A stretch of 56,672 nucleotides of DNA from Patescibacteria group bacterium (GCA_023474835.1 JAMCXQ010000005.1:1-56672), one strand, 5' to 3'; numbered from the stretch's first letter, positions 21,281 to 27,514 are shown. Translations and numbers: made by a program. The notes: generated by a model not told the origin, from the sequence alone.

Positions 21281-21406
21281 CGAACTGAAATTGTTTTAAA
21301 ATATTCAGAACAATTCGAAACCTTAAAACAAGCCAGACACCGTGAGGCTGAAATCAAAAGCTGGCGCCGCGAAAAGAAATTAGCGTTAATGAGTCATGGC
21401 AAATAG
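21281..21406 (+). pseudogene. C-terminal remnant of a GIY-YIG (UPF0213-like) nuclease gene
   Basis: Translates as RTEIVLKYSEQFETLKQARHREAEIKSWRREKKLALMSHGK*, which resembles only the last ~40 aa of small GIY-YIG proteins. There is no start codon or N-terminal GIY-YIG part. Its stop overlaps the MTase start. Confidence 0.45.
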
Positions 21407-22502
21407 TAATCTTACTAACGCGAAACAGGCAAAGAATGATGAGTTTTACACGCAATATGGCGATATTCAAAAAGAGATTGAGGCGTATTTGGAATTTAAC
21501 CCAAATGTATTTCGGGGCAGGGTTGTGTATTGCAACTGCGACGATCCGTTTGAAAGCAATTTTTTTCGCTATTTTACGCTTAATTTCAACAAGCTTGGCT
21601 TAAAACAGCTTATTACCACAAGCTACAAGCCCTCGCCCGTAGCCAACACGCAACTGAAATTGTTTGGCGATGATAAAACCCTTACAAAATCAAAGGGCCG
21701 CCCCAAGATAACCGCCAATAAATTTATTATCAATGAAGTAGCTGATATGGACAGCGATGGCGATTTTGATTTAAAGGACATTGCCAAGCAGTTAAAGGCG
21801 AATAAGCACAATGAATGGACGCCGCTTGAGAAAGACGGCGATTTTAGAAGTTCCGAATGCGTAAAATTATTGAAGCAATCAGACATCGTGGTAACAAATC
21901 CGCCGTTTAGTTTGTTTCGTGAATACGTGAAACAACTTATTGAGTATAATAAAAAGTTTGTGATTATCGGCAACAAAAATTGCGTGACATACAAGGAAAT
22001 TTTCCCATTGATTAAAGACAACAAAATGTGGTCTGGCAAAACAGAATGGTCTGGCGGGTTATGGTTCGTAACCATGGATGATGGCGATGTAGATAAAGTA
22101 GTCAATGGCGTTAATATGAAGAATGTGTCTTCTGTTTGGTTTACCAACATAGACCACGGCAGGCGGCATCAGCCATTGCCGCTTATGACAATGGAAGAAA
22201 ATTTGAAATACAGCAAACACAAAGAAATTCAAGGCAAATCGTCGTATGACAAATATGACAACTACGACGCCATAGAAGTGCCCTTTACTGACGCTATCCC
22301 AAGCGATTATAGCGGCGTAATGGGTGTGCCCATCAGTTTTTTGGATAAATATAGCCCCGAACAATTTGAGATTGTTGGGATGGCAGAGGATAATGGCAAA
22401 GGTTTCTCTGGCGGAATTTGGGACGGCAAAAATCCTCACTGTGTCATAAACGGAGAAAATAAGTTCAAGCGAATTTTTATTAAGCATAAGAAAGTTAAGT
22501 AA
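21396..22502 (+). CDS. N6-adenine DNA methyltransferase, EcoRI-methylase-like family
   Basis: N-terminal KNDEFYTQY, catalytic IVVTNPPFSLF (NPPF), and no adjacent restriction endonuclease recognised. Confidence 0.75.
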   Translation: MANSNLTNAKQAKNDEFYTQYGDIQKEIEAYLEFNPNVFRGRVVYCNCDDPFESNFFRYFTLNFNKLGLKQLITTSYKPSPVANTQLKLFGDDKTLTKSKGRPKITANKFIINEVADMDSDGDFDLKDIAKQLKANKHNEWTPLEKDGDFRSSECVKLLKQSDIVVTNPPFSLFREYVKQLIEYNKKFVIIGNKNCVTYKEIFPLIKDNKMWSGKTEWSGGLWFVTMDDGDVDKVVNGVNMKNVSSVWFTNIDHGRRHQPLPLMTMEENLKYSKHKEIQGKSSYDKYDNYDAIEVPFTDAIPSDYSGVMGVPISFLDKYSPEQFEIVGMAEDNGKGFSGGIWDGKNPHCVINGENKFKRIFIKHKKVK

Positions 22503-22508
22503 AAAAAT

Positions 22509-23018
22509 ATGGCAACAAAAAGACAAGTTTTTTACAGTTTTCATTACAAACCAGATTGTTGGCGAGCTTCCCAAGTTCGAAATATTGGAGCCATTGAAGG
22601 GAATAAACCAGCACCTGATAATGATTGGGAAACTATTATAAGAAGTGGCGATGACGCTATTAAAAAATGGATTAAAGATCAAATGAAATACCGATCATGC
22701 ACGGTTGTGCTTGTCGGCGAAAATACTGCTAATCGCAAATGGATAAATCATGAAATAGTTGAATCATGGAATGCAGGAATGGGAGTTGTTGGAATTTGTA
22801 TTCATGGTTTAAAAAATCAAGATGGATATATTGCAAATCAAGGACATGATCCATTCAATTACATTACATATGGCGATAGCGGTAAAAAATTATCATCAAT
22901 AGTAAAATGTTATAATCCGTCAGGAAGTAATAGTAAAGAAAGATATGATTGGATTTATCAATATATTTCTGATGCTGTTGAAGAAGCTATAAGAATTAGA
23001 AATAATTATTCAAAATAA
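22509..23018 (+). CDS. TIR-like protein (DUF1863/ThsB-type)
   Basis: RQVFYSFHYKPDCWRASQVRN, TVVLVGENTANRKWINHEIVESW and GVVGICIHGLKN, a pattern I associate with ThsB-type TIR-like domains. Confidence 0.7.
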   Translation: MATKRQVFYSFHYKPDCWRASQVRNIGAIEGNKPAPDNDWETIIRSGDDAIKKWIKDQMKYRSCTVVLVGENTANRKWINHEIVESWNAGMGVVGICIHGLKNQDGYIANQGHDPFNYITYGDSGKKLSSIVKCYNPSGSNSKERYDWIYQYISDAVEEAIRIRNNYSK

Positions 23019-23021
23019 AAT

Positions 23022-23459
23022 ATGGAAAATCCAACTGAATACAAACATTGTCCAAATAAAATTGCACACTTGCAGATGATTCAAGGTGTTATTGATCGTA
23101 TGGCCGGAAATTTATTTTATCTAAGGGGGTGGGCGATTACGCTACTTGCTGGGCTTTTTGCCATTTCTACTTCGGAAGCGTTAAGCCTCGCAAAGTGGGT
23201 TCCGTTATTATTTTTTGTTTTATTGATTTTATTTTGGATTTATGACGGATATTTTCTTTCTTTGGAGCGTAAATTTAGAGGTTTATATGATAAGATTAGG
23301 AAATTTCCGGAAGAGGAAATTGATTTTTCAATGAATATTGGAGAATTTAAAACTCATGCTGACAAAACGATGTTTGCTACAATATTATCTCCGACGCTAT
23401 TAGGATTTTACGGCATTCTAAGTTTGGCTATGCTGGTAATTATTAAATTTATTTTATAA
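23022..23459 (+). CDS. small membrane protein (3 predicted helices), candidate effector
   Basis: Hydrophobic helices lie at about aa 36-56, 59-78 and 119-143, with a charged linker SLERKFRGLYDKIRKFPEEEIDF. It is embedded between the two TIR-like genes with 3-nt and 1-nt gaps. Confidence 0.65.
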   Translation: MENPTEYKHCPNKIAHLQMIQGVIDRMAGNLFYLRGWAITLLAGLFAISTSEALSLAKWVPLLFFVLLILFWIYDGYFLSLERKFRGLYDKIRKFPEEEIDFSMNIGEFKTHADKTMFATILSPTLLGFYGILSLAMLVIIKFIL

Positions 23460-23460
23460 A

Positions 23461-24135
23461 ATGGCAAGAAAAATTTTCATTAGCTATAAATACGGAGATA
23501 CCGGCGTTCAACATATACCGCGCTATGGCGAATATGATGCAACGACAGCACGACATTATGTTGATGTTTTGCAAACAAAATTGGATGTGGCAGATCATAT
23601 CAATAAAGGGGAAAACGACGGCGAGGATATGAGTAAGTTTAAGGACGAAACGATAGAATCAAATTTGAGAAATAAAATTTTTGACAGTTCAATTACGATT
23701 GTCCTGATATCTAAAAATATGAAAGACCCCTATCTTGCCGAGGATGACCAGTGGATTCCTTGGGAAATTGCATACTCAATGAAAGAAATTACGCGCAACG
23801 GAAGAACAAGCGGAACAAATGCGATGCTAGCCGTCGTCCTCCCTGATGAGAATGGAAATTATTCGTATGTTGTAAATCACTATCAATGCGTAACTGTTTG
23901 GAATGTCGCATCTTTGTTTAAAATTATAGAAAGCAATATGTTTAATCGAAATCAGAAAAATTTAATTCGCTGCGTAACCTGCGGCGGTATTCATCATACA
24001 GGACAAGACCATTCATATATTCATCCAGTCAAATGGTGCGACTTCATTATTAACATTGATGGATATCTTAATCATGTTATTGGGCATCAAAGTAATCTTG
24101 ATAGTTTTGATATTGTAAAAGAAATAACGCATTAA
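23461..24135 (+). CDS. second TIR-like protein with Cys/His-rich C-terminal part
   Basis: ARKIFISYKYGD, ITIVLISKNMKD, QWIPWEIAYSM and a C-terminal CVTCGGIHHTGQDHSYIHPVKWCDF. Confidence 0.6.
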   Translation: MARKIFISYKYGDTGVQHIPRYGEYDATTARHYVDVLQTKLDVADHINKGENDGEDMSKFKDETIESNLRNKIFDSSITIVLISKNMKDPYLAEDDQWIPWEIAYSMKEITRNGRTSGTNAMLAVVLPDENGNYSYVVNHYQCVTVWNVASLFKIIESNMFNRNQKNLIRCVTCGGIHHTGQDHSYIHPVKWCDFIINIDGYLNHVIGHQSNLDSFDIVKEITH

Positions 24136-24145
24136 TTAAAAAAAT

Positions 24146-24199
24146 ATGAAAGCAATTTTAAAAAGCGACACTACTGTTAAAGATATTTGCGAGGGGTGA
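24146..24199 (+). pseudogene. 17-codon remnant of a DUF262-type gene start
   Basis: MKAILKSDTTVKDICEG* compared with [18 protein letters not shown] at 24930; 42 of 52 nt are identical by hand alignment. It starts 10 nt after the TIR gene stop. Confidence 0.6.
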
Positions 24200-24297
24200 A
24201 AATTATAGGCAATGGCGGGATTAAGTTGGAAAATTGAACTACCGAGGAATCCTCGGTAGTTCAAAAAACTTCGAATAAATTAGTTGAATAATAAGTT

Positions 24298-24699
24298 ATG
24301 GAGAAAGAAAATTATAAAAAAGAGTTTGATAAATGGAATATCCAAAAAAAGATTACTCACAATAGTGAAAATAAAAAAACTTTTCACGAACAAGAAATTT
24401 GGTTTATTAAAATTGGCGAGAATATTGGTTTTGAACAAGACGGAAAGGGCGAGGATTTTTTAAGGCCAGTTATTGTTTACAAAAAATTTTCAAAAAATGT
24501 TTTTTTGGGCATACCTTTAACAAAAGCAATAAAAGAAAATAAGTTTTATAAGGTATTTGATTTTCATGGAGAAAAAAGCAATGCAATTCTGTCGCAAATA
24601 AGACTTTTTGATTCAAAGAGATTAAAATATAAAATTGGAAAAATGAGTTCTGTTGATTTTGCTTCTGTAAAAGAAAAACTCATCCAGTTGATTAGATGA
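24298..24699 (+). CDS. MazF/PemK-like toxin, no adjacent antitoxin gene seen
   Basis: EIWFIKIGENIGFEQDGKGEDFLRPVIVYKKF..FLGIPLTKAIKE..AILSQIRLFDSKRL fits the PemK/MazF family pattern. Confidence 0.65.
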   Translation: MEKENYKKEFDKWNIQKKITHNSENKKTFHEQEIWFIKIGENIGFEQDGKGEDFLRPVIVYKKFSKNVFLGIPLTKAIKENKFYKVFDFHGEKSNAILSQIRLFDSKRLKYKIGKMSSVDFASVKEKLIQLIR

Positions 24700-24786
24700 G
24701 TTTTCCCTGTTTTTACTCCCCATAAGGGGAGAGAGTCCTAATGGACATTTATATTGTAATATTACCATATTTTAAAGTTAAAAGTC

Positions 24787-24907
24787 AATAGTAGGACTTA
24801 CGCGTTTGGGCATTTTTTCTCAAAAATCGCGTGAAATATGGCCTTATTTCGTGGCCTCATTGCACAAAAAATGGCTAAAACTGGCCAAACGCGTAAGTCC
24901 TAAATAG
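24787..24907. mobile_element. MITE-like element: 18-bp perfect terminal inverted repeats with 5-bp AATAG flanking duplication
   Basis: TAGGACTTACGCGTTTGG (24792-24809) and CCAAACGCGTAAGTCCTA (24885-24902) enclose a 75-nt non-coding core. AATAG occurs at 24787-24791 and again at 24903-24907. Confidence 0.55.
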
Positions 24908-24929
24908 TTTAAAAAAGTGAAAAAACAAT

Positions 24930-26099
24930 ATGAAAACGATTTTAAAAACCAATATTACCGTTAGAGAAATTTGCGACGGGTTTGTTTATAACGAGCTTGA
25001 GGGCAAAGGCTTGTTTGGCTTGTCTGGCAAATTGACTATTCAGCCGGAATATCAACGCAACTATATCTATGCTTCCGATGGGGGCAAAAAAGAAATTGCT
25101 GTTATTGGCTCAATTCTTAAGGGCTATCCAATTGGCTTAATTTATTTTAATAAGGTTTCTGAAAATAACCTGGAAGTTTTAGACGGGCAACAACGGATTA
25201 CCAGCTTAGGGCGGTTTATAACCGATAAATTTGCCATTAAAGATGCAAACAATATGGAGCAATATTTTAATGGTATGGCGAAAGACAAACAAGCCAAAAT
25301 TTTGGAAACCAAACTTTTGATTTACGAATGCGAAGGCACGGAAAGCGAGATAAAAGAATGGTTTAAAACGATTAATATTGCCGGCGTGCCGCTTAATAAT
25401 CAGGAATTGCTTAATGCTGTTTATTCTGGGCCGTTTGTAACGCTCGGCAAAGAAGAGTTTAGCAACAGCCAAAACGCCAATATCCAGAAATGGAGCGCCT
25501 ATATATCGGGCAGCGCTAACCGGCAGGACTTTTTGGAACGCGCTTTGGATTGGGTAAGCAAAGGAAATATCGGGGACTATATGAGCCACCATCGTTTTGA
25601 TAAAAATATCACTGAGCTCAAAAAATATTTCAACAGCGTGATTGATTGGGTTTCTGCTATATTTATTGATGTGGAAAGCGAGATGCGCGGGCTGGAATGG
25701 GGCAGATTATACGAACAGTATCATAAGAAAGCGTATGACCCCGTCAAAGTCTCAGCCGAAGTGCAAAAGCTTTACGCTGATCCGTATGTAAAAAATCGCA
25801 GGGGGATTTTTGAGTATATTCTCGGCGGTTCCGTTGACACGAAATTGCTTGATGTTAGAGTTTTTGACGAAGCAACCAAGAAAGCTGTTTATACAACGCA
25901 AACTGCTGCGGCCGGAAAGAAAGAAAAGTCAAACTGCCCGCATTGCGCCATTGGGCACGACGCCAACAAGAGCAAAATTTGGAGTTTTGGTGAAATGGAC
26001 GCCGATCACGTAGCGGCCTGGAGCAAGGGAGGCGCAACTACAGCTAAGAATTGTCAGATGCTTTGCAAGACACATAATCGAGCGAAAGGTAATCGATAA
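24930..26099 (+). CDS. DUF262 (ParB/GmrSD-N-like) plus HNH nuclease fusion protein
   Basis: [16 protein letters not shown] (the DGQQR motif of DUF262). C-terminal [31 protein letters not shown] is an HNH motif. Confidence 0.75.
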
Positions 26100-26250
26100 T
26101 TTTATCTATGCAGGGTTACCTAATATGCCCGGATCGATTATTGAGCCCGAGCTTCCAAAAAAGACGAAAAAAGATTAGAATCGATATAATCTCGAGTTAA
26201 TTGTTAGGGGTTCGGGGTATAAATATACCCGCATTGTTGCTGAAGTATAT

Positions 26251-26277
26251 TTCTAGCATTTACCAACTCTCGCAGCA
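26251..26277 (+). repeat. 27-nt direct repeat, left copy (TTCTAGCATTTACCAACTCTCGCAGCA)
   Basis: Matches 27488-27514 at 24 of 27 positions. Each copy is followed by a short hairpin using CAACTC/GAGTTG. Confidence 0.6.
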
Positions 26278-26379
26278 GAGTTTGCAAGAGTTGACAGAGA
26301 ATAGAAGGGAAAACTGACAAAAGTTTACAAGTTATCTTTGTGGGTCAACTAATAATTAATTTTAATAAATTTAATCAAT

Positions 26380-26742
26380 ATGGTATCTCCTCAACTTTGG
26401 TTAGAAATATTATCTCTTACAAAAGCTCTTTTTGATGCTATTAAGTCGGGCGCAGATCTTCTTGCGAGCTATCAGAAGCATAAACAAGAAAAAGAAACAG
26501 TTCAGGAGTCTCAGAGGGTAAGCGAAGTATTTTCTACCTACTCAGAAAATGAAGTAAAAAAGATTCTTTTACGATTAGAACAATGTCGGGATCGATTTAT
26601 TAAACAAGGTGGTGGTACGGATAGAGCGTCCTGTTTATGTAGTATATTGAATGAGGTTAAGATTGGTAATGGAGGTCAGCTTCCTATTATAGATGATTGG
26701 GCTAATATTTATCGTCAACTAGGGTGTGGTACTCATCAGTAA
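26380..26742 (+). CDS. hypothetical protein (120 aa)
   Basis: AT-rich ORF in the island; no motif recognised. Confidence 0.45.
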   Translation: MVSPQLWLEILSLTKALFDAIKSGADLLASYQKHKQEKETVQESQRVSEVFSTYSENEVKKILLRLEQCRDRFIKQGGGTDRASCLCSILNEVKIGNGGQLPIIDDWANIYRQLGCGTHQ

Positions 26743-26810
26743 TATTGATTCTAATCGAGACTAATGTTGCTAGAGGAGTTAAAAATAAACATAAATTTTT
26801 TTATAGAAAC

Positions 26811-27458
26811 ATGCAAAGTTTATTAGATACAAATCTAGAAAGAATTAAATCAGAAATACAACAAAATTCTTGGAATAATAAAGATATAGTTTCTTTAATG
26901 AATTTTTTTAGGCATATTTTAGAGTCAAGCAAATCTCAAGGAAAATATAAATATATTAATCTCTATTCTAATTGGGTATTTCACACGGAGATAACTAAAA
27001 ATTCAGTAGCAATGGATATTCTGGATATTTTGACTGATTCAATGATCAAACATAACGTTAATCCTAAAGATGGAAAGTGGGTTAACGATGCGATTATTGA
27101 AGGACTTTCACTTCATCTATTAAGAGAAGAAATTTTGTCATTCTCAAAAGAATTTAATCTTGGTACAGATGTTAACATTTACGAATTTAATAATTGGAAA
27201 AATTTTGCAGTGTCCTTAATAAAGGAATTATTAAATAAACCCTTGAAAGTCATTCAAAATAAGACGATATATAATAACCTTATCGATAAAGCAAATAAAT
27301 CAGGGTATATCGGCAATGCAGTATTAGCAATATATTTTTGGGTAGATAATAATGGGATTGTCCATTGGAAAATCGATACACCAGAAAGTTTAAGAAAGGG
27401 CGTTTCAGTAATTGGCCCGATGAGTATAATTTCTCAGCAGATGATCGATGGTTGTTAA
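26811..27458 (+). CDS. hypothetical protein (about 216 aa)
   Basis: ATG at 26811. The track's GTG at 26724 would overlap the upstream gene. No motif recognised. Confidence 0.45.
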   Translation: MQSLLDTNLERIKSEIQQNSWNNKDIVSLMNFFRHILESSKSQGKYKYINLYSNWVFHTEITKNSVAMDILDILTDSMIKHNVNPKDGKWVNDAIIEGLSLHLLREEILSFSKEFNLGTDVNIYEFNNWKNFAVSLIKELLNKPLKVIQNKTIYNNLIDKANKSGYIGNAVLAIYFWVDNNGIVHWKIDTPESLRKGVSVIGPMSIISQQMIDGC

Positions 27459-27487
27459 GCGGAAATTGAAGAGTTTGCCATTAAAAT

Positions 27488-27514
27488 TCTTCTAACATTT
27501 ACCAACTCTCGTAA
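27488..27514 (+). repeat. 27-nt direct repeat, right copy (TTCTAACATTTACCAACTCTCGTAACA)
   Basis: See 26251-26277. Confidence 0.6.

Follow-up and report, generated by a model that had tools for sequence, protein, structure and literature searches.

Type V Thoeris, which consists of the TIR protein ThsB and the "DUF2270" effector ThsF, has been validated experimentally (Yirmiya et al., bioRxiv 10.64898/2025.12.03.692087). According to the same preprint, ThsF has three membrane-spanning helices and was modelled as a ring-shaped homo-heptamer with positively charged pockets between the protomers. In the validated system, ThsB alone makes 3'cADPR upon infection, the 3'cADPR sponge Tad1 lowers defence, and addition of 3'cADPR to cells carrying the system leads to toxicity; one variant of type V did not respond to 3'cADPR. 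The authors also describe type XI Thoeris, in which the effector is a HIT hydrolase and for which they detected no known signalling molecule. Type V Thoeris is an already known system, published in December 2025 and catalogued earlier by PADLOC as PDC-M50, a computational candidate without a described mechanism; our literature search found no papers naming "PDC-M50".

The window analysed here, a whole stretch of 56,672 nt from a Patescibacteria group bacterium MAG, contains a gene for a 145-aa protein flanked by two ThsB genes (Table 1). We consider it highly probable that this gene encodes the membrane effector of a type V Thoeris system, a protein of the ThsF family. The first-pass annotation, made from the DNA alone, had given the position and length of this ORF exactly and had described both flanking genes as TIR-like, a description now borne out by their ThsB matches. 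The spacing that it reported is also correct, with 3 nt between the ThsB1 stop and the ORF and 1 nt between the ORF and the ThsB2 start. In addition to the matches listed in Table 1, ThsB1 is recognised in PADLOC as ThsB (3e-66) and PDC-M50B (2e-63), and ThsB2 in Pfam as ThsB_TIR (5.4e-7). Both component HMMs of PDC-M50 therefore match genes of the window, and the two matched genes are neighbours.

Table 1. Features of the window and further modules nested in restriction-modification (R-M) genes
Feature	Position	Strand	Evidence or remark
EcoRI-type N6-adenine DNA methyltransferase	21396..22502	+	Pfam EcoRI_methylase 1.1e-119
ThsB1, short TIR, 169 aa, predicted signal-producing sensor	22509..23018	+	Pfam ThsB_TIR 2.4e-27
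Candidate ThsF-like three-TM effector, 145 aa	23022..23459	+	ATG start; PADLOC PDC-M50A 1.5e-40
ThsB2, long TIR, 224 aa, second predicted sensor	23461..24135	+	PADLOC ThsB 6.7e-76
PemK/MazF-like toxin gene	24298-24699		Pfam 1.4e-7; 162 nt past ThsB2
GmrSD_N (DUF262) + HNH nuclease	24930..26099	+	Pfam GmrSD_N 4.8e-21, HNH 3.8e-6
Two overlapping ORFs, 120 and 244 aa	26380-27458		Low-GC island
R-M-nested modules	L001 4438-11404; L005, L008, L016, L018-L022, L024, L026, L030; window 21396-26099		

The genes around this cassette are of several kinds. The EcoRI-type methyltransferase, whose stop codon lies 6 nt before ThsB1, is apparently the first gene of the operon and belongs to the context, outside Thoeris proper. 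Its probable restriction partner is the GmrSD_N-HNH nuclease, which PADLOC matches as REase_II (3.5e-82) and which we likewise treat as a context gene. No antitoxin gene was identified in the window beside the PemK/MazF-like gene, and the two overlapping ORFs further downstream, for which Pfam, NCBIfam and PADLOC gave no match, may likewise serve in defence. The GC content is 0.30-0.35 at ~22500-27500, compared with ~0.46 in the flanking housekeeping region (cysS, dnaX), and this drop suggests that the segment, which also holds the PemK/MazF-like gene and the GmrSD_N-HNH nuclease, is a horizontally acquired defence island. Scanning 20.9-26.4 kb yielded 29 promoter-like sites versus 17.7 expected and no terminator inside the cassette, a scan that is uninformative in such AT-rich DNA.

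The 145-aa protein is predicted to cross the membrane three times. Kyte-Doolittle hydropathy in 19-aa windows peaks at residues ~31-56 (1.6), 53-81 (2.3) and 121-145 (2.3), and an AF2 monomer model built on 135 diverse homologs (pLDDT 93.7, pTM 0.84) places helices at residues 11-49, 60-94 and 124-144, in agreement with the three hydrophobic helices proposed at first. The first two helices of the model are long, each running on past the membrane, the last is the third TM helix, and all three TM helices lie inside the conserved core of the family. The N-terminus had been described as amphipathic and the segment following the second helix as a charged linker. Both descriptions are accurate, but in the model the former region is the cytosolic continuation of the TM1 helix and the latter consists of a helical extension of TM2 (81-94) plus a loop. 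The predicted topology places the N-terminus in the cytoplasm and the C-terminus outside.

Conservation is concentrated on the predicted cytosolic face, the outer loop and the N-tail being unconserved. The conserved positions are K13, H16, Q21, R26 and N30 in the cytosolic N-terminal helix; F32, K35, G36 and W37 at the start of TM1; F71, W72, D75 and L79 at the cytoplasm-proximal end of TM2; E82, R83, R86 and Y89 in the TM2 extension; and D101, F102 and M104 in a short loop motif. Six conserved basic positions (K13, H16, R26, K/R35, R83 and R86) lie on one face, an arrangement that would fit a site for a negatively charged nucleotide. A Foldseek search of the model against the PDB gave nothing meaningful (best E 2.5) and thus no homolog of solved structure.

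Although scans of the protein against Pfam (E<=0.1) and NCBIfam returned no match, it belongs to a very large family. A single-sequence search found 530 homologs at E<=1e-3, clustering at 50% identity gave 4,806 representatives, of which 2,974 reach E<=1e-10, and a profile of the type V-clade subfamily matched >6,267 proteins, all of which lack a Pfam label. These numbers are far beyond chance, and the ORF is real. No recognisable member from the Bacillus cereus group was present in the top 120 matches of the subfamily profile. In PADLOC, the family corresponds to component A of the candidate system (PDC-M50A).

The ThsF-like/TIR module is abundant in Patescibacteria. Members of the family are also found on 131 plasmids, 82 of them conjugative, where their annotation is always "hypothetical protein", as well as in a few phage records, on one viral contig and in one filamentous prophage. 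On the viral contig (L092, 1464-3178), a member and its TIR partner lie near terminase and portal genes, and another such pair (L140, 4001-5117) resides inside a Photobacterium filamentous prophage with Zot and Phage_GPA. Vibrio phages contribute three 14-kb records (PQ189363, PQ189372 and PQ189378), each with a family member. The TM module further occurs in fusions. In the 378-aa protein P0208, an N-terminal SLOG domain (LD_cluster2, 1.7e-15; residues 10-198) precedes the TM module at 242-376, a fusion that supports an effector function of the TM domain in nucleotide signalling. In another protein, P0151 (362 aa), an N-terminal domain of ~220 aa to which we could assign no identity is fused to the same TM module.

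The assignment of the 145-aa protein to ThsF is indirect and runs via the partner TIRs, the labels in Table S1 of the preprint and a fold match to a DUF2270 protein. ThsB1 shares 85% identity over 152 aa with IMG 2700921483, which is labelled "DUF2270 - Type V" in Table S1 (bioRxiv 10.64898/2025.12.03.692087), and several more rows with this label are of the same TIR type as ThsB1. The label is also given to the long TIR type to which ThsB2 belongs (cluster 2742576382), and ThsB2 itself shares 35% identity with a TIR that carries the type V label there. With the validated ThsB of B. thuringiensis DAR 81934 as a query, the closest metagenomic relatives were 60% and 52% identical, and members of our family lie directly downstream of them (1.4e-36 to 4.6e-28). 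The same arrangement was seen in four plasmid loci (L086-L089), and a family member was present in 31 of the 55 loci of validated-ThsB relatives. When the window protein was aligned with the proteins encoded beside these relatives, R26, N30, W72, D75, E82 and F129 were invariant.

The similarity to DUF2270 itself is distant. Among the viral predicted structures of BFVD, the best fold match to the model is A0A3G4ZN31, a DUF2270 domain-containing protein; the match has a probability of 0.97 and a TMq of 0.65, but a Foldseek E-value of 0.55. A lenient Pfam scan of 135 diverse members gave weak DUF2270 matches in 27 of them (best 1.4e-5), which cover positions ~23-72 of the PF10028 profile, corresponding to the TM1-TM2 region; DUF3278 matches were also weak. 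The PF10028 gathering threshold of 25 bits was reached neither by the window protein nor by any member scanned individually, namely 10 divergent representatives, 5 proteins from plasmids or viruses and 10 encoded beside type V-clade TIRs, among which the best score was 16.9 bits. The PF10028 profile has 184 positions, compared with ~135-145 aa for the family studied here. ThsF-like is therefore the most fitting name for the family, whose relation to DUF2270 is only a distant one. Table S1 also lists a "3TM" effector class, which we do not equate with this family; the table gives no effector sequences, and the class was set apart by its TIR partner, which belongs to a different clade (FISHSW...YSVP).

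Taken feature by feature, the locus resembles type V Thoeris in having a small three-TM protein encoded next to ThsB genes of type V TIR clusters, in the same orientation and at distances of 3 nt and 1 nt. The conserved basic residues on the cytoplasmic face are likewise as expected for the positively charged pockets described for ThsF. Unlike in the published systems, the host is a Patescibacteria MAG, an R-M operon surrounds the module, the two ThsB genes on either side of the effector belong to different clades, and PF10028 misses the protein.

The association with TIR genes extends to other genomes. We fetched 80 species-level loci, with adjacency counted over 82 loci, from Patescibacteria, Proteobacteria, Acidobacteriota, Myxococcota, Cyanobacteria, Bacteroidota and two archaeal MAGs, and labelled the neighbouring ORFs by iterated HMMs seeded on ThsB1 and ThsB2 of the window. 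A ThsB-like gene adjoins the TM gene in 76 of the 82 loci, usually 1-13 nt downstream. This recurrent co-occurrence with TIR-like genes is what the first-pass annotation would have led one to look for, and the role proposed there, that of the killing or arrest effector of the TIR cassette, is the best supported and right in outline. In 9 of the 82 loci no TIR neighbour of the TM gene was called; one of these is a truncated contig, and in three the TIR gene lies one gene away. The commonest architectures are TM-shortTIR (38 loci) and TM-longTIR (15 loci), followed by shortTIR-TM-longTIR, the type found in the window (8 loci), TM-longTIR-shortTIR (6 loci) and a few others.

Some loci contain further genes. 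In 7 of 59 loci, the gene immediately upstream of the module codes for a small HTH protein of the MerR family, which may be a dedicated regulator. On the Streptomyces plasmid NZ_CP108986.1, a member at 208211-208588 adjoins or overlaps an annotated HIT domain gene, and effectors of the type V and type XI kinds may share one locus or one TIR there. In Flavobacterium sp. SUN052 (L139, 1093-6411), a gene-dense stretch holds a member with an adjacent ThsB_TIR gene together with several unlabelled genes of ~145 aa and ~260 aa. The stretch may correspond to the multi-ThsB/ThsF island that the preprint describes for Psychrilyobacter. More generally, the TIR partners of the family come from at least three clades.

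A W..E motif is kept in both TIRs of the window, as WINHEI in ThsB1 (residues 78-83) and as WIPWEI in ThsB2 (residues 98-103), and we take it to be the position of the catalytic glutamate in ThsB TIR NADases. ThsB2 is 48% identical over its full length to a TIR encoded on a B. cereus plasmid beside a SIR2 family gene. The context of this relative looks like that of type I Thoeris, which uses 3'cADPR, and may hint at 3'cADPR. The ligand is nevertheless uncertain, because the TIR cluster of ThsB1 (2661146773) is common to type V rows and type XI in Table S1 (bioRxiv 10.64898/2025.12.03.692087) and because one type V variant is unresponsive to 3'cADPR. The TIR clade of ThsB1 may make a signal of a kind not yet identified.

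The published work on type V Thoeris, from which we draw every step by analogy, suggests how the cassette would act. Upon phage infection, one or both ThsB proteins would convert NAD+ to a cyclic ADP-ribose signal, which in the validated system is 3'cADPR. The signal would then bind in a basic pocket formed by the N-terminal helix (K13, H16, Q21, R26, N30), the membrane-proximal K/R35, W37, W72 and D75, and the TM2 extension (E82, R83, R86, Y89), a pocket that would probably lie at the protomer interfaces of a ring-shaped homo-oligomer. Binding would open or reorganise the oligomer, so that the membrane would be breached or depolarised and both the infected cell and the phage would be stopped. 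The first-pass annotation had reasoned that a protein without a separate sensor domain would have to sense the signal itself or bind the TIR proteins directly; the former agrees with the published type V data.

Many of the modules are associated with R-M genes. Among co-directional upstream neighbours within 200 nt, ~25 of 59 are DNA methyltransferases, and HsdS accounts for 10 of 40 downstream neighbours. A type I R-M nesting, hsdM-[ThsB]-TM-ThsB-hsdS-hsdR, is found in many loci (Table 1), and the set made up of an EcoRI-type methyltransferase, the TM and TIR genes and a GmrSD-HNH gene recurs on the P0112 contig and in L004. The R-M kinds around the module vary (type I, EcoRI-like with GmrSD/HNH, N4/N6 and C5), and many loci, plasmids and prophages carry the TM and TIR genes without an R-M gene nearby. 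A suicide-type defence gene inserted between R-M subunit genes has a precedent in PrrC, which guards EcoprrI. The hsdM-[ThsB]-TM-ThsB-hsdS-hsdR order resembles that case in that the module lies between R-M subunit genes. It could accordingly be imagined that the Thoeris module is wired to the host R-M operon, being co-transcribed with the methyltransferase as a second-line abortive backup; it would then fire when a phage escapes restriction or inhibits the R-M enzyme. We regard this wiring as improbable and a guard-type coupling of the module to R-M as unlikely. In contrast to PrrC and EcoprrI, insertion hot-spots or shared transcription may be all that lies behind the nesting. The word "restriction" is absent from the preprint of Yirmiya et al. 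(bioRxiv 10.64898/2025.12.03.692087).

A different role for the 145-aa protein would be that of a membrane anchor or adaptor which binds both ThsB proteins, the TIRs themselves killing by NAD+ depletion. Such a role would be in keeping with the lack of a separate sensor domain and with the position of the gene between two TIR genes at near-zero distances, an arrangement suggestive of a stoichiometric complex, and an NAD+-depleting effector role is known for some bacterial TIRs. Yet in validated type V Thoeris exogenous 3'cADPR is by itself toxic to cells carrying the system, and both the effect of the Tad1 sponge and the production of 3'cADPR by ThsB alone upon infection speak against the anchor role. 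Moreover, only one TIR, which may be of the short or the long class, is present in the commonest architecture, and partners drawn from three or more clades are easier to reconcile with a diffusible signal than with a specific protein contact. We thus consider the anchor role very unlikely and retain the ThsF-like effector as the preferred reading.

The first-pass annotation had also proposed a SLATT-like topology, in other words that the protein is a two-TM effector of the SLATT class. This would put it on a par with ThsH of type VII Thoeris and the SLATT proteins of CBASS. The protein does resemble these effectors (ThsH; CBASS SLATT/DUF4231) in size, at 145 aa, and in being a small membrane protein apparently controlled by the nucleotide messenger of a neighbouring enzyme, and TIR+SLATT systems that defend against phage exist. 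The association with SMODS, SLOG or TIR signalling that is typical of SLATT is likewise seen here, in the TIR adjacency and in the SLOG fusion of P0208, but it is common to many non-SLATT effectors. At the level of homology the two groups differ. The window protein has no match to the Pfam SLATT or DUF4231 models at E<=0.1, and SLATT was not among the top Pfam families of the 135 diverse members at E<=1. For comparison, genuine SLATT effectors were collected from plasmids through a search with a validated type VII TIR; one of these, a Staphylococcus SLATT that is also 145 aa long and lies beside a type VII-like TIR (L143), scored 84 bits with DUF4231 and 41 bits with SLATT_1. Aligning a six-sequence SLATT alignment to the 135-sequence profile of the family with hhalign gave a probability of 1.0%, and among the viral fold matches the first SLATT protein appeared at rank 14 (prob 0.18, TMq 0.37). 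The helix count and the conserved motifs differ as well, since the core of the family has three TM helices, by hydropathy and AF2, in place of two. The SLATT reading is therefore largely refuted, with scarcely any probability left to it, and the resemblance is functional only. The earlier proposal is in this sense partly supported, being right on the role of the protein as the membrane effector of a TIR cassette and wrong on its family.

Finally, it is hardly credible that the 145-aa protein is primarily an accessory membrane part of the host R-M system, regulating or localising the methyltransferase or nuclease, with the TIR linkage secondary: the frequent methyltransferase and HsdS neighbours and the EcoRI-type methyltransferase next to ThsB1 would be expected of such a part, but the adjacency to TIR genes is far stronger than that to R-M genes, the R-M types vary, and many TM+TIR loci, plasmids and prophages have no R-M gene nearby.

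The ThsF-like reading has several consequences. Thousands of ThsF-like proteins have no Pfam or NCBIfam match and are named "hypothetical protein" by PGAP, which constitutes an annotation gap; since these databases miss the family, type V Thoeris is likely to be under-counted by any detection that relies on the DUF2270 model. The map of conserved residues (K13, H16, Q21, R26, N30, K35, W37, W72, D75, E82, R86 and Y89) provides targets in the proposed pocket. The frequent nesting among R-M genes is a lead on the co-regulation of defence systems and leaves the published picture of type V Thoeris unchanged. For Patescibacteria, we found no paper on Thoeris beyond incidental mentions and no literature on TIR-signalling immunity in the lineage. 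With the window, a genome of the Patescibacteria (CPR) would contain a complete and compact cassette of type V Thoeris, and, in a milder and likewise improbable version of the link to R-M, such compact three-gene cassettes on R-M operons would be the main route along which TIR immunity spreads in these bacteria with tiny genomes.
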